Virus record (IMG/VR): IMGVR_UViG_3300022744_000003
Location: 1 to 64,000 of that record
Source: a virus
Length of the DNA stretch: 64,000 nt
Direction: 5' to 3' (one strand)
The notes under the pieces are model-generated. The model did not search any database. It worked only from the letters and a program-made list of their open reading frames with translations, and was not told where the DNA came from. A program made the translations under genes and the position numbers. Of the stretch, positions 14,952 through 51,913 are shown one piece after another; the first letter of the stretch is position 1; every line of letters begins with the position of its first letter.

Positions 14952-15075
14952 TCGGGGCCGGTGGGGGCACCCAACTGGCGAGGGCAGTACTTCGGGCCGA
15001 GGGGACCCGAGGTGCTGTCCTCGTCGCTTTGCGGGCTCTACGATGCGATCAAGATCCCCCACCGAGGAGAACCCC

Positions 15076-15537
15076 ATGGCCAAGAACGACGTAATCGACG
15101 CGGACCTGGACGTCCGGACCGGCGACGCCGACGTGAAGAAGGACCCCATCACCAGCATCCCGCGCGCGACGCTGAACGACCTGCAGGGCAAGAAGCGCGC
15201 CGAGCGCGAGGTGGCGGTCGAGATCCCCACCGAGGCCGGGCCCAAGAAGGTCTCGTTCCTGTTCCGGGCGATCAGCCGCAAGGCGTACGACGCCCTGGTG
15301 GACGAGCACCCGCCGACCAAGACCCAGCAGGCCAAGGGCGAGTCGTTCAACGTGGACACCTTCGCCCCGGCGCTGCTCGCGGTGGTCTGCATCGAGCCCG
15401 AGCTCGAGGTGTCCGCCTGGGCGAAGTTCTGGAAGAGCCCCGACTGGTCCCCGGGCGAGCTCAGCGGCCTGTTCTACACCGCCGCCGGTCTGTGCAACAC
15501 GGGCTTCGAGCTGGTCCCTACTACCGCGGGCGACTGA
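15076..15537 (+). CDS. tail assembly chaperone (G-like)
   Basis: GGAGAA RBS before ATG 15076 (the ORF track start 15043 is less likely). Acidic 153 aa. Canonical position. Confidence 0.65.
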   Translation: MAKNDVIDADLDVRTGDADVKKDPITSIPRATLNDLQGKKRAEREVAVEIPTEAGPKKVSFLFRAISRKAYDALVDEHPPTKTQQAKGESFNVDTFAPALLAVVCIEPELEVSAWAKFWKSPDWSPGELSGLFYTAAGLCNTGFELVPTTAGD

Positions 15538-15563
15538 GGAGGGACGCGCAGCTCGCGCTCGAG

Positions 15564-15899
15564 ATGAGCGTGGCGGCGAAGTACTCCATCCCGCACAGCG
15601 AGTTCATGGCCTGGGACTCGGTCGACCAGGCCAAGGCGATCGCCTTCCACCTGCACGAGGCGGAGAAGTGCACCTTGTGCGGCACGGCAGACTGGGAGTG
15701 GGATCCCGAGCAGGGCGGGGCCCGCTTCGCTTACGAGCCGGTGGAGAAGGTCTGCATGGGCTGCTACACCAAGCACGACATGGGCGGGGGCGGCCCCGGC
15801 TCCTACCTGACCCTGCTCCCGGCCGGCACCCCCGAGGCCGCACGCCGCCACGTCGCGGCGGAGCGCTCCGCTCGAGTCCGGGCGGCGCGCAGTGAGTGA
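15564..15899 (+). CDS. tail assembly chaperone T-like segment with CxxC...CxxC zinc ribbon (possibly fused to G by -1 frameshift)
   Basis: -1 frame relative to the G gene and open through it. Contains EKCTLCGTADWEW...KVCMGCY. No SD before ATG 15564. Stop overlaps the tape measure start. Confidence 0.5.
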   Translation: MSVAAKYSIPHSEFMAWDSVDQAKAIAFHLHEAEKCTLCGTADWEWDPEQGGARFAYEPVEKVCMGCYTKHDMGGGGPGSYLTLLPAGTPEAARRHVAAERSARVRAARSE

Positions 15900-18800
15900 G
15901 GAGACCCGGGACGCCAACGTCCGCCTCACCGCGGACGTCCAGCCCTACCGCCAGGACGTCGCGGCGGCCGCGGACGACACCACCAAGCTCGCCGCGGCCG
16001 TCGACGTCCTGGCGTCCAAGCTCGACGGCCTGGGCAAGCGCACCGGCAAGAAGCTGACCCTGTTCGCCGCCGCCGACCTGGCGATGATGGGCGGCATGGT
16101 CGCCGTCACGGCGAACTACGAGAAGCAGCTCGGCACGCTGTCGGGCCAGGCCGCGGTCACCGGCAAGAACATCGGCGCGCTGAGCACCAGCATCCGCCAG
16201 GCGAGCCGGGACATGCCGGTCGCGCGCGACGAGGTCGTGGCGCTGACCACCGCCATCTCCAAGATGGGCGTGACCAGCCAGAAGGACCTCGCGTCGTTCA
16301 CCACGACGTTCCTGAAGGCCTCTGCGGCCACCGGGGACTCCGCGCAGGGCCTGGCGTCCTCCATGACCTCCCTGAGCCGCCAGATGGGCACCCTGGGCGG
16401 CGGGGGCAGCCAGATGCGGGCCTTCACCGACTCGCTGGTCAAGGTCTCGGCCACCGCCGGGGTCTCGGCGCAGAGCGTGGCCGACTTCGCGAACTCGATC
16501 GCGCCGTTCGCCCGGGTCGCCGGCATCGGCCAGAAGCAGGTCCTGGGCCTGTCCTCGGCCTTCGTCCAGGCCGGCAACGACGGCTTCGCCGCGGCGAACA
16601 CCTTCAACACGATGCTGGCCGACATCGTGCGCCAGACCTCGAGCGGCGGCCCCGGGCTGGCCAAGTACGCATCCCTGGTCGGGGTGACGGTCGACGAGTT
16701 CAAGAAGCTCGACTCGTCCCAGCAGGTCGTGAAGATCTTCAAGGCGATCAACGACGCCGGCCCCCAGGCCGTCCAGGTGCTCGACCAGATGGGCTTCGAC
16801 GGCATCCGCGCGGCCAAGGCGATCCAGACCATGGCGGCGCAGTCCGGCGGCCTGGAGAAGCTCGTCAACGCCGCGGTGGGCGGCTACGGCGACGACTCGA
16901 CGAACAAGGGCGCGGAGGCCGCGATGAGCGGCTTCGCGGACGAGATGATCCGCGCGGGGAACATCGCCAAGGACATGGCGACCTCGATCGGCTCGGGCAT
17001 CATCACCCCCCTGACCTACGGCCTGGGCGTCCTGAACAACATCACCGCCGAGGCGTCCAAGCTCACCGGCATCTTCGCCGCGGGCGGGGCGCTGGCGGCC
17101 GCGGGCGGGCTGGCCTCCGGCGCGGCCGGCGGCATCATGCAGGTCGCGAGCATGGCCGCGGTCCCCGCAGGCATCCGCTGGCTCTACAACTCCTCGCCCC
17201 TGGGAGCCTTCCGCGAGGGCCGCCGGGCCGCGGCCGCAGCCAAGAACGGGATGAGCATCCCGGACGGCCCCTACATCGACCGCTACACCGGCGGCCGCGC
17301 CGGGCGCCTCGAGGGGATGGGCTTCGCCTCCGGCGCCGCCGTGGGCGACATCTGGGGCGGGAACAACGGCGGCCGGGGCATCGTGCAGAAGGCGAGCTCG
17401 GCCTTGGGCTTCCTCCCGCGCATGGTCGCAGTGGGCGCGAACTTCCAGTCCGAGTTCTACGACGAGTCCCGCCAGCAGGGCTACCAGCGCGGCAACCAGA
17501 CCAGCCTGTGGTCGGGCATCCGCGCGGCCGCGAGCTCGACGGACTCCTTCACCCGCTCGACGCTCAAGGCCACCGCGGCGCTGGCCAAGTTCGAGTGGTC
17601 GGCGGCCAAGGCCGGCGTGAGCGCGGGCGGCGCCGTCGCCGGCAGGGCGCTGGGCAAGCTCGGCGGCGCGGCCATGGACTTCCTGGGCGGACCGATCGGC
17701 ATCGCGGCGATGGCCGGTATCGCGGCGATCCAGGTCAAGAGCATGAACGATGAGCAGCTCACCGCGCTGCGCGACCGCGCCAAGGACCCCAACGCCTACA
17801 ACCAGGCGTCGCCGTACGCCGCGGCGCTGGGGACCGCGTCCTCCTCGCTCTCGGACATGACCCTCATGGTCGGCAAGAGCTCCAAGGAACTCGACTCGCT
17901 CGCCGCTGCGGCCGCGAACGCCCGGAACGGGATCATCGCCGGCGGCGCGACCAACCCGAACACGGCGTCGATCACAAACAAGGACCAGGCGGTCTCCTAC
18001 CTGCGCTCGCTGGGGGCGAACAGCAGCCCGGAGACGATGAACCTCGCCTTCGCCGACGTCCGGCGCGCGCTGCCCGGCCAGGCGGGCAAGGACGCGATCG
18101 ACGCCTACATGCGGAACCCGACCTCCACGGTCACCCTGGGCGACATCTCCAACGCCGCGGGGAACATCGGCAACTCCGACGTCTCGGGCATCGGGGAGCG
18201 GCTGGGGTTCACCCTGTCCGGGGACGCCGACCGCAAGACCCAGATGGGCCTGGGCGCGGCGCTGCAGTACGTCTCGCAGTACTCCAAGTTCGGCGACGCG
18301 AACGTCCAGGAGCAGGCCAAGGTCAACGCCGCGGTCACGATGCTCGACGCCGCCCTCAAGGGCGGGACCGCCAACGACGACCCGGCCACCCGCAAGGCCC
18401 GCGTGGCGGCGGTCGCCCAGGTCGAGCAGCTCCTCGGGGTGGACTTCAAGTACAACGCGGCCAACGGCTACGGCTCGGCCGCCGAGCTCCTCGGCGCGCA
18501 GGACGCGGACTCGACCTTCGGGAACTACCGGACCAACAACCCGAACCTGGTCTTCTCCGGCGGCCAGGCGGGCCAGACGGCCCTGTACCGGCTCGCGGTC
18601 ACCAACACCGACCCGGGCGTGCTCGGGCTGCGCGGGCGGGGGGTGGACCTGCAGAGCGGCTACCTCGGGGACGCGGTCACCCGGATCGGGGACTCGACCG
18701 TCCAGAACAAGGCCGTGCTCGAGCTCTACAAGATGGCCAAGGAGAAGGGCGGCGGCTCGATCGCCAAGGCCGACAGCGTCCTGCAGGGGATCCTGGCCGA

Positions 18801-20064
18801 GGAGAGCACCAAGCCCGGCGCGAAGTTCGAGCAGATCGCCGCCCTGGCCAAGCAGGCCCAGGGGCTGCTCGGGGTGGACCAGCAGTTCGCCTCGGTCGGC
18901 CTGGGTCGCGTGGGACGCCTGCAGGCCGCGCAGGAGAAGTACACGACCGTCATGGGCGAGCCGGCCACCGACGAGTCGATCCCGCGCCAGGAGGCCGCCA
19001 AGCGTGCGCTGGAGTCGGAGAAGGCGAACTACCAGCAGTACCTGATGAGCATGGTCCAGGCGCAGAAGAACTTCGCCATCTCGATGGAGCGTTCGGACGA
19101 GGACTACTACCGCACCCGTAGCCAGTCGCAGGAGGACTTCCAGACCTCCATGGCCCGCTCGACCGAGGACTTCAACAAGTCCATGGCGCGCGCGCAGGAG
19201 GACTTCACCCAGGCCCAGAAGCGCCAGGGCGAGGACGCGGCCAAGAGCATCTACAACCCCTTCCGCCGCGTCCAGGCCTCCTACACCGCCGACGTCGGCA
19301 CGCTCAAGCAGAACCTCAAGGACCAGACCGGGCGGATCAAGAAGCAGATCGCGAACCTGCGCAAGCTCAAGCGCCTGGGCCTGAGCCAGCAGGCGATCGA
19401 CATGCTCGACCTGGCGAACCCGGCCAACGCCCAGCAGGTCGAGGAGCTCGCGGCCGAGATGAGCCGCAACGACGCCCGCCAGATCAACGGCATGGTGGGT
19501 GCGCGCCAGAGCGCCACGCTGGGGCTCACCCAGAGTGACCTGAGCCAGCAGTACCGCCGGGCGAACGAGGACTTCCGCAAGCAGATGAACCGGGCCTCGT
19601 CGGACTTCTCCACGTCGATCTCGCGCGCCACCGCGGACTTCAACAAGGGCCTGGGACGGATGGCCGCGGCGCACGCGCTGCAGACCAAGCGGGCCAAGGA
19701 GGACCTGGACCGCATGAGCGAGGAGCAGGCGGCCTCCTTCGGCGTCCTGTTCGACAAGGCCGTCACGCTGGTCACCAAGAACATCGGCAAGGCCGGCAAC
19801 GCCACCATCGAGGAGCTCAAGCGGGTCAAGGCCGCCTTCCCCGAACTCTTCGGCGAGGTCGCCAAGGTGGGCGACACCTCGCGGGTCATCTACGGCTCGA
19901 ACACCCCCCGTACGCCGTCGAGCTCGACCGGCGGCGGGGCGAACGCCTACCAGCAGAACAACGTCAACATCGGATCGGTCGCAGTCGCGGCGAGCGACCC
20001 GGTCGACTTCACCCAGCGGATGGCCGACCAGAGGCGCCTGCAGCGCCTCAAGGGATCGGGCTGA
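15892..20064 (+). CDS. tape measure protein
   Basis: 1390 aa, Ala/Gly-rich and helical. Follows the chaperones. GTGAGTGA overlap start. The long antisense ORF 15604..19674 is a shadow ORF. Confidence 0.85.
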   Translation: MSEETRDANVRLTADVQPYRQDVAAAADDTTKLAAAVDVLASKLDGLGKRTGKKLTLFAAADLAMMGGMVAVTANYEKQLGTLSGQAAVTGKNIGALSTSIRQASRDMPVARDEVVALTTAISKMGVTSQKDLASFTTTFLKASAATGDSAQGLASSMTSLSRQMGTLGGGGSQMRAFTDSLVKVSATAGVSAQSVADFANSIAPFARVAGIGQKQVLGLSSAFVQAGNDGFAAANTFNTMLADIVRQTSSGGPGLAKYASLVGVTVDEFKKLDSSQQVVKIFKAINDAGPQAVQVLDQMGFDGIRAAKAIQTMAAQSGGLEKLVNAAVGGYGDDSTNKGAEAAMSGFADEMIRAGNIAKDMATSIGSGIITPLTYGLGVLNNITAEASKLTGIFAAGGALAAAGGLASGAAGGIMQVASMAAVPAGIRWLYNSSPLGAFREGRRAAAAAKNGMSIPDGPYIDRYTGGRAGRLEGMGFASGAAVGDIWGGNNGGRGIVQKASSALGFLPRMVAVGANFQSEFYDESRQQGYQRGNQTSLWSGIRAAASSTDSFTRSTLKATAALAKFEWSAAKAGVSAGGAVAGRALGKLGGAAMDFLGGPIGIAAMAGIAAIQVKSMNDEQLTALRDRAKDPNAYNQASPYAAALGTASSSLSDMTLMVGKSSKELDSLAAAAANARNGIIAGGATNPNTASITNKDQAVSYLRSLGANSSPETMNLAFADVRRALPGQAGKDAIDAYMRNPTSTVTLGDISNAAGNIGNSDVSGIGERLGFTLSGDADRKTQMGLGAALQYVSQYSKFGDANVQEQAKVNAAVTMLDAALKGGTANDDPATRKARVAAVAQVEQLLGVDFKYNAANGYGSAAELLGAQDADSTFGNYRTNNPNLVFSGGQAGQTALYRLAVTNTDPGVLGLRGRGVDLQSGYLGDAVTRIGDSTVQNKAVLELYKMAKEKGGGSIAKADSVLQGILAEESTKPGAKFEQIAALAKQAQGLLGVDQQFASVGLGRVGRLQAAQEKYTTVMGEPATDESIPRQEAAKRALESEKANYQQYLMSMVQAQKNFAISMERSDEDYYRTRSQSQEDFQTSMARSTEDFNKSMARAQEDFTQAQKRQGEDAAKSIYNPFRRVQASYTADVGTLKQNLKDQTGRIKKQIANLRKLKRLGLSQQAIDMLDLANPANAQQVEELAAEMSRNDARQINGMVGARQSATLGLTQSDLSQQYRRANEDFRKQMNRASSDFSTSISRATADFNKGLGRMAAAHALQTKRAKEDLDRMSEEQAASFGVLFDKAVTLVTKNIGKAGNATIEELKRVKAAFPELFGEVAKVGDTSRVIYGSNTPRTPSSSTGGGANAYQQNNVNIGSVAVAASDPVDFTQRMADQRRLQRLKGSG

Positions 20065-20427: not shown

Positions 20428-20656
20428 TGAGTGCTCCCTCCACGTCCGGGGTGACCATGTAGCCGTCCGTGGACAGGCTCTCCGCGATGCGCCGGAGCGC
20501 GATCGTCGCGTCCTCGTTCGGCATGTTGGTGTTCAGGACGACCGGGATCGCCCCGTGCTCGCCGACGTCCACCTTCTCGCCGAAGCGGATCAGGATGTAG
20601 TCGCCGTCGATGAACGCGTCGAGGAGGCGCTGGACGGCCTCGGTGCTCGCGCTCAC
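20393..20656 (-). CDS. hypothetical protein (87 aa)
   Basis: GTG 20656 overlaps the upstream TGA (GTGA). Sensible tail (VSASTEAVQRLLDAFIDGDYILIRFGEK...) of ORF 20393..21457. Confidence 0.5.
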   Translation of the reverse strand: MSASTEAVQRLLDAFIDGDYILIRFGEKVDVGEHGAIPVVLNTNMPNEDATIALRRIAESLSTDGYMVTPDVEGALSGALIQPPAGG

Positions 20657-21216
20657 GACTCCAGCTCCTTCGGCTCCTCGATCGAGGCCGTGAACAGGCT
20701 CGCGGCCGGCGGGATGGCGTTCAGGACGTCGAGCGCCTCCTGGCTCCCGATACCCTTGACCAGCACGGTGCGCTTGGCCTCGAGCTCGGCGGCGTTGAGG
20801 TCCTCGTGCGCCTTGTCGTAGGCCTTCTTGGCCTCGTCGCGGCGCCCCTGGAGCCAGGCGTCCTTCTCCCGGTAGTAGACCTGGGCGTTGGGCATCGTCA
20901 GGCCGTTGTAGAGGCGGGTGTCGTCCTCGCGCTCGACCCCGATGCCGATCTTGTCGGTGCGCTGCTCCTCGAGGAACTCCTGCCACAGCGCGTCGAGCGT
21001 CTCGAACCTGGTCCTGAGGGCGAGCCGGACCCGGTCGAGCTCGGCGTCGGGGAAGAGCTCGTCCGCCTCGGCGACCAGCGCCTCGTCGTGCTCCCGGTAG
21101 GCGGTGTTCAGCGCGAGCCGGGCGCGGGCGTAGTCGTTCCTGATCAGCGCCTCGAGGTTGCTCTGCTCGCTCTTGGTGAGCGCCTTGGCGGGCGCGCGGT
21201 TCATCATCTCGGTCAC
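20653..21216 (-). CDS. hypothetical helical protein (187 aa)
   Basis: ORF track entry. GTG 21216 overlaps the TGA of the +1 frame of the upstream gene. Confidence 0.65.
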   Translation of the reverse strand: MTEMMNRAPAKALTKSEQSNLEALIRNDYARARLALNTAYREHDEALVAEADELFPDAELDRVRLALRTRFETLDALWQEFLEEQRTDKIGIGVEREDDTRLYNGLTMPNAQVYYREKDAWLQGRRDEAKKAYDKAHEDLNAAELEAKRTVLVKGIGSQEALDVLNAIPPAASLFTASIEEPKELES

Positions 21217-21546
21217 GAATCTTCTCCTTGATCAGCCAGGCAGGTGGGCCAGGCGTCTTCGGGGATGAGGTCGAGGATCTTCCCGGCCTCGTGGGACACC
21301 AGGTGGCGGAACTGGTTCTTGTCCGCCGTCTCCTGGCGCATCGTCTTGCTGGTGGTGTTCGGGTAGGGCAGGGGGGGTGGTCATCTGGACCCACCGCTCG
21401 TACGTGTGCACGCGGCAGTCGCACTTCGCCGTGAGGTCGAGGCGCTCGTCCCGCCACTGCTTCCAGGAAACAGCGGCGGGACGAGCAAGGATCCCAGCGA
21501 GGAAGTCGGCCGCCGTGGGCTCGTGCTCCACGGCGGCCTCGCTCAT
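21213..21546 (-). CDS. early protein needing a +1 frame change at a C7 run (about 110 aa if fused)
   Basis: The 0 frame (ORF 21232..21546) becomes Pro/Arg-rich after MTT. The +1 frame from 21371 has high GC3 and ends in a GTGA-coupled stop at 21213. Confidence 0.5.
21369..21377 (-). other. candidate +1 frameshift site CCC_CCU_G (or homopolymer indel)
   Basis: mRNA reads ACC ACC CCC CCU GCC. The plus strand has G7 at 21371..21377. Confidence 0.4.
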
Positions 21547-23939: not shown

Positions 23940-24166
23940 GCGGGGGATCCCGCGCTGGTGCTCAGCCGCTCGACCTCGGCCTTGGCCTCGTCGAGCGTGC
24001 TGAAGTTCCCCTCGAGCAGCTCTCCTGTGGTGATCTCGAAGACCCGCCAGCCCGCGTAGGCGGGCGAGTTCTCCATCACCGGGAGCAGGGCGAACCGCAG
24101 ATCCTCGGAGAGGTGGACTGCGAACCCGCTCGCTGCGTCCCAGATGCGGCGGAACCTGACCTTCAT
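23936..24166 (-). CDS. hypothetical protein (76 aa)
   Basis: ATGA overlap start. Translates as MKVRFRRIWDAASGFAVHLSEDL... Tail of ORF 23936..24454. Confidence 0.5.
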   Translation of the reverse strand: MKVRFRRIWDAASGFAVHLSEDLRFALLPVMENSPAYAGWRVFEITTGELLEGNFSTLDEAKAEVERLSTSAGSPA

Positions 24167-29517: not shown

Positions 29518-29549
29518 AGTATGGCACCTTACGATCAAAGTGTCAAGAC
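29518..29549 (-). promoter_or_regulatory. conserved intergenic motif with sigma70-like TTGACA-17-CATACT
   Basis: - strand reads GTCTTGACACTTTGATCGTAAGGT. The -35 element overlaps the stop of 29543..30136. Confidence 0.45.
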
Positions 29550-30136
29550 CAGGAGATTCGGCTCGTCATGGCCCTCTTACGGGCGTCCAGCGCCTCGCTG
29601 CCCTGGGCCCAGGCCGTGTCGAAGGACGCCTTGTCCATGACGAGCCAGTCGGGGAAGTGATCCATCACCCAGTACGAGATCAGGACGTCGAAGTCCTCCT
29701 CCTGGATCTCATGGGTGTTCTTGCGGATCAGCTTCCAGGTGGCGTCATCCGCCTTGCGATCGCTCCCGTTCGCATCCCACCAGGCCTTGAAGGCCTCGGC
29801 GAACGCCGCGGGCTCGTTCTGCACGATCATCTCGTGCAACTGCATGGTCGGGTGGTTCGTCCACTTCCGCGCCCGCTCGAGCTCCTGGAGCCCGAACAGG
29901 TGCATCCCGACCACCATGTTGGACCGGTCCTCGTAGTACGAGTCCATGATCCAGTCCTCATGGTGGTCATGCAGGTACTCCACGACCTCGGCGTAGAAGA
30001 CGTGGACCGAGCGAGCGACGTGCGCGGCCCAGGACTTCTGGGTGTCACGCAGGCTCTTGTACTTCTCCGTGATGCTCAGGGGGATCCACCTCCTCGATGG
30101 CGTCGAGAGCAACAGCCAGCCGCAGCGCCGGCACAT
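29543..30136 (-). CDS. hypothetical protein; true start unclear (no good start codon; may be reached by +1 shift from 30045..30365)
   Basis: The frame is clearly coding from SITEKYKSLRDTQKSWAAHV (about 30076) onward. The first 19 codons of the ORF (MCRRCGWLLLSTPSRRW) look off-frame. Confidence 0.55.
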   Translation of the reverse strand: MCRRCGWLLLSTPSRRWIPLSITEKYKSLRDTQKSWAAHVARSVHVFYAEVVEYLHDHHEDWIMDSYYEDRSNMVVGMHLFGLQELERARKWTNHPTMQLHEMIVQNEPAAFAEAFKAWWDANGSDRKADDATWKLIRKNTHEIQEEDFDVLISYWVMDHFPDWLVMDKASFDTAWAQGSEALDARKRAMTSRISWS

Positions 30137-30365
30137 CGGTCTTGTGCAGGTCGAAGTAGCCCCTGCACAGGGCCTGGCCCCCAGATCCGTAGAACGGGAG
30201 CGTCTGGTGACATGAGAAGGCCGCCTCGGCTGCGAGGTTCTCCTCGATCAGCGCCTTGAGGCGGCCGGGTGGCAGGTGCATGAGATTGCCTGGTCGGAGA
30301 ACGCAGGTCGTGCACTTCTCCTTCAGGACGTGCACCTTGCCGTCGCGGTACGGAGGGGCGTTCAT
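30045..30365 (-). CDS. Cys-containing small protein (106 aa in the 0 frame)
   Basis: ATGA overlap start. Translates as MNAPPYRDGKVHVLKEKCTTCVLRPGN...SCHQTL...ALCRGYF. The last 13 codons have poor GC3. Confidence 0.55.
   Translation of the reverse strand: MNAPPYRDGKVHVLKEKCTTCVLRPGNLMHLPPGRLKALIEENLAAEAAFSCHQTLPFYGSGGQALCRGYFDLHKTDVPALRLAVALDAIEEVDPPEHHGEVQEPA
30077..30083 (-). other. candidate +1 frameshift site CCC_CCU_G preceded by an SD-like GAGGAGGUG
   Basis: mRNA reads GAG GAG GUG GAU CCC CCU GAG. The +1 frame reads CCC CUG AGC AUC ACG. Confidence 0.4.
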
Positions 30366-30670
30366 CCCGCACCCACGTAGTGAGCCCCCCACTCTCTGCG
30401 CATGGCAGATCGCAGGGGGCTCGGTATGGGCAATTCTACCCCCAGGGTGACGAGGGTGGAAGAGGGGAACCGCCGGCGGATCCAGGTGGCGGTCCGCTCG
30501 GTCAGGACCCGCTTGCGCAGTTCCTGCTCGGTGTGGCCGATCAGGACCCGGCTGATCCGCTGCCCCTGCGGGGAGACGATGATCGCCCGGACGTGGCTGG
30601 CGTGGTCGCGGAAGACGATCCAGACCGGGGAGTTCCCGATCTCGGCGTCCTCGCTGTACTCGACGAACAT
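30362..30670 (-). CDS. hypothetical protein (102 aa)
   Basis: TGATG overlap start (MFVEYSEDAEIGNSPVWIVFRDH...) inside ORF 30362..30862. Confidence 0.5.
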   Translation of the reverse strand: MFVEYSEDAEIGNSPVWIVFRDHASHVRAIIVSPQGQRISRVLIGHTEQELRKRVLTERTATWIRRRFPSSTLVTLGVELPIPSPLRSAMRREWGAHYVGAG

Positions 30671-31353
30671 CACGCCTCCCCGGTGATCGCACGGTCCACG
30701 GCGTCGAGGACGCGCAGGAGGCGACGGCGCAGCACGGTGCTGTGCGTCGCTTCCGGCGTCGCCTCGGCAGCCGCCCGCAGGGTGTCCACGTCGTCCTTGC
30801 TTGCCCGCAGAGCGGCGAGCGCGGCACGGGCCTCGTCCCGCTGGCGGCGCATCTCGCGCCATGCATCCGACTCGCGCCCGAGCCCGCGCAGGTGCTCAAC
30901 CTCGGCACGCTGGTCCTCCACCTCGCGGCGCAGCGCGTCCGTCTCGGCGGCGAGCGCGGCACGGGCCTCGTCCCGCTGGTCGATCATGTCGCGGGCGATC
31001 TGCCGGGCCTCGTCCCGCTCGGCGGTCAGGTCGGCGTTGTCGGCCACCTGCTCGTCGTAGTGCTGCCACGCCGAGTCGCGGGCCTCGGTCAGCCGCTCCA
31101 CGTCGCGGCGTAGCGCCTCCGTCTCGGCCAGCAGTCCCTCGTACACCGCCTTGGACGCGCCCCCGTTGTAGGTCCGGCGCAGGGCCTCCGTCTCGGCGGC
31201 GATGCGGGCGGCGATGTACGGCTCCAGCGCTGCGACAGCGGTGCGGGCCTCCGCGAAGTGCCCAACGACGTAGGGCTGCTCCGTCCGGGCGCACCCTGGG
31301 CAGTCGGCGGCCAGCGTCTCGGCCACGGCGGTCACGGCGTCGTCACGGTTCAT
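30670..31353 (-). CDS. coiled-coil protein with internal duplication
   Basis: 227 aa. Repeated RDEARAALAA and ETEALRR segments. A 32-bp perfect direct repeat lies at 30813..30844 and 30948..30979. Confidence 0.65.
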   Translation of the reverse strand: MNRDDAVTAVAETLAADCPGCARTEQPYVVGHFAEARTAVAALEPYIAARIAAETEALRRTYNGGASKAVYEGLLAETEALRRDVERLTEARDSAWQHYDEQVADNADLTAERDEARQIARDMIDQRDEARAALAAETDALRREVEDQRAEVEHLRGLGRESDAWREMRRQRDEARAALAALRASKDDVDTLRAAAEATPEATHSTVLRRRLLRVLDAVDRAITGEA

Positions 31354-33435: not shown

Positions 33436-33570
33436 TCAGCGCTCCGGGAACTGGGCCGCGCAGGCGGCGGGGTCGTCGGCGTTCGCGCACGGGTCACCCT
33501 GCATGAGCAAGATCCCGATCGCCGCGGCGATGATCATCAGCAGCATCAGGGTCCCCTTGTTCATCCTCAT
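33436..33570 (-). CDS. small membrane/secreted peptide (44 aa)
   Basis: AGGAGTGACC RBS. Translates as MRMNKGTLMLLMIIAAAIGILLMQGDPCANADDPAACAAQFPER. Overlaps the 3' end of the upstream gene. Confidence 0.4.
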   Translation of the reverse strand: MRMNKGTLMLLMIIAAAIGILLMQGDPCANADDPAACAAQFPER

Positions 33571-34351
33571 GGTCACTCCTCATCTTCCGGATCCGGTAGA
33601 GCGTCCTGCTGGTCACCCCGAGGCGGGGAGCAGCTTCTTCGATGGTGAGCCCCTCGTAGCGCTCGAGGTGCTCGAAGTCCGCCCACAGGAGGTCCTGCGG
33701 GTTCTCCTCATCGGTCGAGGGGACATGGGCGGGGTCGTCGATGGTGTCGTCGTCCCACCAGATGGGAGCCAGGTAGCCCCGCTTGCGGGCCCAGCCCCTG
33801 CTCAGGTGCGAGGGGCCGGGCGTGCTGCTCAGCTCGTCGTAGAGCCTCGCGACCCGTACGTGGTTCCGCACGGTGATGGTGTCGCCGCGCTGGTTGAGCA
33901 GGACGGCGGTGGTGACGCCCGAGCGCCGGTACATCTCCGCATGCGTCCAACCGATCGCCAGCAGCGCCTGGATGCGCCGGCACGCCCCGATCCGGGGTAC
34001 GAAGGTCTCGTCCTGGTCGTCGCTCGGGGAGTAGACCGGCCCGGTCACCGACAGGATCGCCTCGACGACCGCGCGCTTGGCCTGGTTGCTGCTGCCCCGC
34101 GTGACGTGGTGCAGCGTCGACCTGCTGAGACCCGCGGCCTTGGCGATCGAGGAGTACGACATGCCGACCGCGTGGAGCCGGTCGGCATGCTCCCTCGCCG
34201 CGGTGGAGTCCACCAGGCGGGTGATGCCCTGCGCGCGCTGGTGGCGCCACCGCTTCTGGTAGCGGGTCATGGCGGCCGCGCAGGGCTCGCACGGATCCGA
34301 CCCCTCCTTGCGGTGCCGCTGGAAGCCCGCCGTGGTCCCGTGCCCGCTCAT
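33494..34351 (-). CDS. putative DNA-binding regulator (N-terminal Cys motif plus HTH segments)
   Basis: ATGA overlap start. Translates as MSGHGTTAGFQRHRKEGSDPCEPCAAAMTRY... Has HTH-like SYSSIAKAAGLSRSTLHHV and LGVTSRTLYRIRK. Confidence 0.55.
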   Translation of the reverse strand: MSGHGTTAGFQRHRKEGSDPCEPCAAAMTRYQKRWRHQRAQGITRLVDSTAAREHADRLHAVGMSYSSIAKAAGLSRSTLHHVTRGSSNQAKRAVVEAILSVTGPVYSPSDDQDETFVPRIGACRRIQALLAIGWTHAEMYRRSGVTTAVLLNQRGDTITVRNHVRVARLYDELSSTPGPSHLSRGWARKRGYLAPIWWDDDTIDDPAHVPSTDEENPQDLLWADFEHLERYEGLTIEEAAPRLGVTSRTLYRIRKMRSDHEDEQGDPDAADDHRRGDRDLAHAG

Positions 34352-51490: not shown

Positions 51491-51519
51491 GCTCGGGGGG
51501 GCTAACCCCCTCCCGGGCC
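51491..51519 (+). terminator. GC hairpin after 51225..51473
   Basis: A GGGGG run and a CCCCC run flank the loop GCTAA, with imperfect flanking pairing. Confidence 0.4.
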
Positions 51520-51764: not shown

Positions 51765-51836
51765 GCCGTTGTGGTCTAGTGGCTTGGGCCCCTGCCTTCC
51801 AAGCAGGAGACGGGAGTTCGATTCTCCCCAGCGGCT
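51765..51836 (+). tRNA. tRNA-Gly (anticodon UCC)
   Basis: Hand-folded. Acceptor GCCGTTG/CAGCGGC. Anticodon arm CCTGC-CTTCCAA-GCAGG. T-arm GGGAG-TTCGATT-CTCCC. No encoded CCA. Confidence 0.8.
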
Positions 51837-51837
51837 C

Positions 51838-51913
51838 TACGCGGTGGGTTGCCGGCATCCCGCCCTGATTCTGGATCAGGAGCACGCAGGTTCGACTCCT
51901 GCCCGCGTAGCCA
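51838..51913 (+). tRNA. tRNA-Gln (anticodon CUG), CCA encoded
   Basis: Acceptor TACGCGG/CCGCGTA. Anticodon arm CCTGA-TTCTGGA-TCAGG. T-arm GCAGG-TTCGACT-CCTGC. The D-arm is atypical (3 bp). Confidence 0.7.

Follow-up and report, generated by a model that had tools for sequence, protein, structure and literature searches.

A conserved phage gene that changes reading frame at a C7 run, with replication slippage as the probable origin

Homopolymer-tract indels are a reversible class of mutation documented in high-GC Actinobacteria (bioRxiv 10.1101/717272; PMC10334774). In the phase variation of these bacteria, for example at the glpK tract of Mycobacterium tuberculosis, the insertion of one base into a C or G run switches a coding sequence off, and the phage locus described here would fit the same pattern. 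It differs from the actinobacterial tracts in that the gene comes from one metagenomic phage population and the reversibility of its slippage is only putative.

Frame changes can also be brought about by the ribosome. In prfB and in Listeria phage PSA, the P-site tRNA shifts +1 onto an overlapping cognate codon, which in PSA is a proline codon beside a stop or a pseudoknot (PMC5009743), and the same kind of overlap is present at our locus. The prfB and PSA sites have a stop or pseudoknot as stimulator, with a Shine-Dalgarno (SD)-like element in addition in prfB, and they are conserved in relatives, whereas neither feature was found here. Unprogrammed slippage is a second possibility, as the quadruplet CCC-C is +1-prone for tRNA-Pro, at up to about 1% in Escherichia coli reporters (PMC4519876). 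This error process is suppressed by m1G37 and EF-P. Our locus has the same quadruplet, on which P-site tRNA-Pro pairs equally well in either frame (0 or +1), but the process was measured mostly at codon 2 of reporters, whereas here the quadruplet lies at codon 58 of a phage gene. Finally, the thymidine kinase of herpes simplex virus is rescued by compensatory frameshifting that occurs at a low level on a G7 ± 1 run (PMC5009743). Compared with that "savior" indel, both the full-length protein and an advantage of the indel are hypothetical here.

Layout of the frame change and the protein family

The window that we analyzed is a stretch of 64,000 nucleotides (positions 1 to 64,000 of IMG/VR record IMGVR_UViG_3300022744_000003). 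A sequence-only reading of it had proposed that an early gene needs a +1 frame change inside a C7 run, and the layout that it described agrees with the ORF list and with a GC3 frame plot. A minus-strand ORF of 104 amino acids (21546..21232) begins at ATG 21546 and reads sensibly in its first part (MSEAAVEH...YERWVQMTT). It then enters seven cytosines (21377..21371, minus strand; G7 on the plus strand) in the mRNA context ACC ACC CCC CCU GCC. The +1 frame is closed just 5' of the run by TGA 21383..21381, which limits where a shift could occur, and is then open until TGA 21215..21213. GC3 in the 0 frame is about 1.0 until about 21400 and 0.27 to 0.5 thereafter, where the tail is rich in Pro, Arg, and Gly and has an off-frame look; in the +1 frame, GC3 is 0.98 to 1.0 from 21375 onward. 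The frame switch is located at the C7 run, and this run holds the extra nucleotide.

The N-terminal half of the gene consists of codons 1 to 58 in the 0 frame (21373..21546; MSEAAVEH...CDCRVHTYERWVQMTTP), and the C-terminal half lies in the +1 frame (21213..21371; LPYPNTTSKTMRQE...DLIPEDAWPTCLADQGEDS), with a GC3 of 1.0. When the frames are fused at the run, the product is a protein of 110 amino acids with an expected junction peptide ...WVQMTTPLPYPNTTSK. Unshifted ribosomes would continue into an off-frame tail, PALPEHHQQDDAPGDGG...HLPG (21232..21372), which ends at TGA 21234..21232. The first canonical start of the +1 frame is ATG 21341, 12 codons past the start of the +1 coding signal, and the 42-amino-acid ORF that begins there (21213..21341) is the sole piece of the gene called in public assemblies.

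Downstream on the same strand lies a gene for 187 amino acids (20653..21229, including its SD sequence). Its start, GTG 21216..21214, overlaps the TGA of the +1 frame as the sequence-only reading had stated, and the same overlap is seen in L001 and L007, two contigs that carry homologues of the split gene. The downstream gene has its own SD, AAGGAG (21229..21224), and the block of SD and GTGA is conserved in the same two contigs. With this SD present and the 0-frame stop only 16 nt before the GTG, a polar effect of the frame change on the 187-amino-acid gene is unlikely or small.

We searched for homologues by exhaustive HMMER over 1.84 billion representatives and by neighbourhood walking from the adjacent AAA-ATPase gene. 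Seven homologues of the fused protein were found on other phage contigs, with 25 to 62% identity, and all seven are uninterrupted single ORFs. The four closest are L001:7473-7802 (109 amino acids, 60% identity), L003:403-720 (105 amino acids, 62%), P0011, which is L007:1347-1676 (109 amino acids, 56%), and L010:4063-4389 (108 amino acids, about 55%), while P0013, P0014 (L008/L009), and P0015 are 75 to 94 amino acids long and 25 to 33% identical. The fused protein aligns with these single chains from end to end. The N-terminal half is 62 to 73% identical to the four closest orthologues and the C-terminal half aligns with every homologue, while none of them matches the 0-frame tail. Twelve alignment columns are invariant, six on either side of the junction: C42, C44, H47, T48, Y49, and R51 before it, and E72, L93, P95, W99, P100, and C102 after it. 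The flanking motifs are CxCxxHTYxRW and LIPxxxWPxC, so that a Cys/His motif appears to be divided across the junction. One protein is thus spread over two frames with the change inside the C run, as had been proposed, and the alignment places the gene in a conserved, unnamed family of predicted phage proteins of 75 to 110 amino acids, normally encoded by one ORF.

Wherever the upstream flank was long enough (L001, L007, L009, and L010), and also in the window, an nSTAND3/AAA-ATPase gene precedes the family gene, either immediately or with one small ORF between them. An AlphaFold model made from a small alignment predicts, with moderate confidence, a helical protein (mean pLDDT of 77, with 83 to 89 for residues 31 to 100) with three main helices at residues 28 to 41, 45 to 56, and 67 to 92, the loop before the third of these containing the junction. 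Foldseek with this model gave no significant match in the PDB, and neither Pfam nor PHROGs has a family for the fused protein. For annotation, the locus is better described as one frameshifted gene of the CxCxxHTYxRW...LIPxxxWPxC family than as a 42-amino-acid ORF beside unannotated space.

Closer relatives were looked for in several collections. No match was obtained by a near-identity DNA search of GenBank phages, by scans of IMG/VR and GTDB genomes with the fused protein, or by a gapped DNA pattern permitting C4 to C10 in IMG/VR, and tblastn of the fused protein against phages returned only noise. A word-indexed protein search did not find the fused protein among 5.8 billion clustered sequences, and the 104-amino-acid 0-frame product had no exact match in about 15 billion sequences. 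With the AAA-ATPase as query, the scan of GTDB genomes revealed no prophage relative, and the collections searched contained no relative above 74% identity in that protein.

A slippage insertion as the probable origin of the seventh cytosine

The change to C7 exists in the DNA. In DNA alignments of the window with the four closest orthologues, the conserved interval measures 91 nt here but 90 nt in every orthologue, the difference being one gap of 1 nt that falls precisely on the C run. When one C is removed from the window, the sequence becomes ACC ACC CCC CTG CCC TAC CCG, with preferred codons throughout. An in-frame C6 run (CGC CCC CCG) occupies the same spot in L007 and L010, which suggests that this Pro-rich linker is prone to forming C runs.

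The run is also unusually long for this genome. Two 7-nt C or G runs were observed in the window where 35.9 ± 8.4 were expected, a depletion of about 18-fold, and the one at 21377..21371 is the only one inside coding sequence. The other (51495..51501) is intergenic and lies about 260 nt upstream of the adjacent genes for tRNA-Gly(TCC) (51765..51837) and tRNA-Gln(CTG) (51838..51913). DNA slippage is expected at the longest run, while a ribosomal frameshift needs only CCC_C, so a break that falls on the C7 run fits an origin by slippage.

We therefore consider a natural slippage insertion from C6 to C7, either fixed or phase-variable, to be the best-supported account of the locus and probably the correct one; the comparison of sequences suggests a mutation rather than a recoding signal. 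A linker ACC ACC CCC CTG with its C6 run would have gained one C by replication slippage. Ribosomes reading normally would then make the first 58 residues followed by a nonsense tail of 46 residues, and the mutation would be tolerated since their stop lies 16 nt before a gene that has its own SD. The C7 tract could revert by slippage, which is how homopolymer tracts behave in Actinobacteria, and traces of the full-length protein may come from unprogrammed +1 slippage of tRNA-Pro on CCC-C. We found nothing to indicate selection for such slippage.

Three observations weigh against this account. The +1 frame has not decayed (GC3 of 0.98 to 1.0, no stop, and all six of its invariant residues kept), which would also fit continued translation; the synteny of the gene is conserved across a diverse group of phages, so that loss of its function might be costly; and CCC-C is genuinely prone to +1 slippage (PMC4519876). 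If the slippage account holds, the intact C-terminal half implies that the insertion arose recently, can revert, or is compensated in part. In estimates that rest on about 50 codons with saturated GC3, the C/N ratio of dN is 1.5 to 2.4 for pairs that include the window and 1.0 to 3.3 among intact pairs, and ω of the C-terminal half is about 0.8 to 1.3 for the former and 0.2 to 0.8 among the latter.

Ribosomal frameshifting and the second CCC_CCU_G

The main alternative is that +1 frameshifting, either programmed or selected as compensation, yields the 110-amino-acid protein alongside the truncated 0-frame product. Peptidyl-tRNA-Pro on CCC 21375..21373 would re-pair with CCC 21374..21372 while CCU stands in the A site, and CUG would be read next. 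The geometry that the sequence-only reading had proposed is correct, since CCC_C at 21375..21372 permits perfect re-pairing, and CCT is rare as it had noted (17 of 643 Pro codons, or 2.6%, in 53 confident genes). CC[C/U]-[C/U] motifs are +1-prone (PMC4519876), and precedents exist in the Pro codons of phage PSA and in the rescue of herpes simplex thymidine kinase on G7 ± 1 (PMC5009743). At our locus, two overlapping frames jointly encode one product recognizable by homology, and the +1 frame is undecayed with its invariant residues in place.

Other evidence speaks against frameshifting, which we consider unlikely. The G34 tRNA-Pro that reads the abundant codon CCC normally also decodes CCU, so CCU need not be slow. 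The only tRNAs of the phage are tRNA-Gly(TCC) and tRNA-Gln(CTG). No SD-like element was found about 3 nt upstream, which is the spacing of prfB, and no G-rich element within 10 nt; the closest such stretch, GGTGGG, lies about 15 nt before the run. Folding was no better than in shuffled controls for the 99 nt downstream and for a 141-nt segment around the site (z = -1.17 and +0.07). In-frame CCC_C occurs at 39 sites in ordinary genes of the phage without consequence, and the break nevertheless falls on the longest homopolymer in coding sequence.

The sequence-only reading had suggested aligning orthologous phages, and the alignment shows one uninterrupted ORF in seven of seven homologues and CCC_CCT_G in none of the four orthologue DNAs examined (L001, L003, L007, and L010); with no stimulator found either, its proposal of programmed frameshifting is not supported. 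The heptamer is the automatic outcome of adding one C to ACC-ACC-CCC-CTG and is thus not independent evidence for recoding. The 53 confident genes of the phage contain no in-frame CCC_CCT, as is expected if the CCT at the run is not a selected codon. Likewise, the TGA at 21383..21381 arises incidentally from the conserved codons [A/C]TG-ACC (ATG-ACC here), and an equivalent [A/C]TGACC is present in all four orthologues. More generally, heptamers of the CCC_CCU_G type at frame breaks in C runs should not be taken as recoding signals without comparative support, as a C inserted before CTG creates them.

A variant of the frameshifting account is that the C7 run has been retained as CCC_CCU_G because some ribosomes slip +1 on it, giving lineage-specific, down-tuned, compensatory expression of a Cys/His early protein. 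We regard this too as improbable. If so, the G-run case in herpesvirus thymidine kinase would have a counterpart in a bacteriophage, a rare documented +1 case in a nonstructural phage gene in a high-GC host and one possibly selected since less of the protein helps the phage, e.g., by avoiding a host sensor.

The sequence-only reading had also pointed to a second junction with the same heptamer. CCC_CCT_G does exist at 30083..30077; however, it sits in a C5 run where two separately conserved genes overlap. CCCCCTG shows no enrichment in the window, with 12 copies where 21 ± 4 would be expected. Gene B, on the minus strand (30045..30365), encodes a Cys-rich protein of 106 amino acids and reads through the heptamer in its own frame to TGA 30047..30045. 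Its homologues, P0003-5 and L006:512-835, each stand alone as proteins; V93 and the CCT-encoded P96 in the 0 frame are invariant, and the tail is shared with L006 (..EVDPPEHHGEVQEPA* against ..EVEPPDVDHRHLQEPP*; QEPA* and QEPP*). Gene A, also on the minus strand (29543..30079), overlaps gene B by about 35 nt and has CTG 30079..30077 where its orthologue has ATG. The homologue P0002 is a separate protein of 176 amino acids whose start, MSITDTYKSL, aligns with LSITEKYKSL of the window, and L006 has GGAGG and then ATG with the same 35-nt overlap of the two genes. The conserved overlap, the stand-alone homologues, and the invariant P96 rule out a frameshift site here, which removes the second site as support for frameshifting at the first.

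Some further features of this gene pair were observed. A GGAGG (30094..30090, minus strand) precedes the CTG of gene A, which may start at this noncanonical codon or, with an odd extension of its N terminus, upstream at TTG 30112 or ATG 30136. Gene B (KCTTCV...SCHQ...LCRG) has weak matches to DUF6283 and phrog_5443. It is uncalled in the public assembly, which instead has a 197-amino-acid ORF, starting at ATG 30136, across the 3' end of gene B.

Remaining explanations and other loci in the window

A sequencing or assembly artefact, with a true tract of C6 and an intact gene, would also account for a break in the longest type of homopolymer in the window, and we consider it very unlikely. The window is 100% identical to the MEGAHIT-style contig k141_716798 of ENA assembly ERZ27252002 (75,698 bp), which has C7, and the Logan assembly of SRR7614061 (75,449 bp) has C7 too. 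In the JGI contig (75,684 bp), the proteins are the same and the 42-amino-acid ORF is called separately. The three assemblies of this metagenomic phage of about 75.7 kb, whose proteins are identical, probably stem from one read set; two different assemblers nevertheless gave C7, and together with the separate ORF in the third source this makes an assembly error unlikely. The comparison of assemblies showed no disagreement among them. The k141 contig name points to short reads, with which a run of only 7 nt does not give rise to consensus-level error. Apart from a repeat region at about 30983..30804, no other unexplained frame break was found in the window.

Less probable still is a split gene in which both parts work, namely, the 104-amino-acid 0-frame product and a 42-amino-acid product initiated separately at ATG 21341. 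Gene callers annotate the smaller ORF, and L001 and L003 keep its ATG, as an internal Met (SKTM). The region from the run to ATG 21341, however, is conserved coding sequence with high GC3, in which P60, P62, T64, and S66 to M69 are shared with L001, and no SD-like sequence precedes the ATG. As coding signal and conservation begin at the run, independent initiation at ATG 21341 is rejected. The homologues are all single chains with invariant Cys and His residues in both halves (C42, C44, and H47 in one, C102 in the other), and the predicted loop at the junction lies within the better-modeled part of the AlphaFold structure. Bacterial transcriptional slippage, in which RNA polymerase realigns on a long A/T run, typically of 9 nt or more (PMC5009743 and, in part, general knowledge), does not match a C7 run.

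We scanned the whole window for high-GC3 segments that start before any start codon. Four loci were flagged, two of which are ordinary gene overlaps and two of which such overlap does not explain, namely, the C7 site and the repeat-containing region at about 30983..30804. The flags at 23963 and 33576 and the cases with long tails proved on inspection to be ordinary overlapping genes with their own starts, and a tape-measure flag at 15829 probably reflects overlap with the ORF upstream of it. The repeat region holds an exact 33-bp direct repeat (30812..30844 and 30947..30979, copies 135 bp apart) within 30670..31353, where high-GC3 patches occur in three minus-strand frames. An HTH-like gene (..LTIEEAAPRLGVTSRTLYRIRK..) that ends at 33494 on the minus strand overlaps by about 80 nt a hydrophobic ORF of 46 amino acids (33576..33436, minus strand; MRMNKGTLMLLMIIAAAIGILLM..) with its own AGGAG and ATG, and its long low-GC3 tail is due to this overlap and not to a frameshift. 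On the plus strand, a pair of ORFs at 15043..15899, the second of them in the -1 frame, occupies the position of the tail assembly chaperones G/GT immediately upstream of the tape-measure gene (15892..20064). No obvious X_XXY_YYZ heptamer was seen in the pair before TGA 15535..15537, and the second ORF encodes a CxxC...CxxC protein that could start at ATG 15565.
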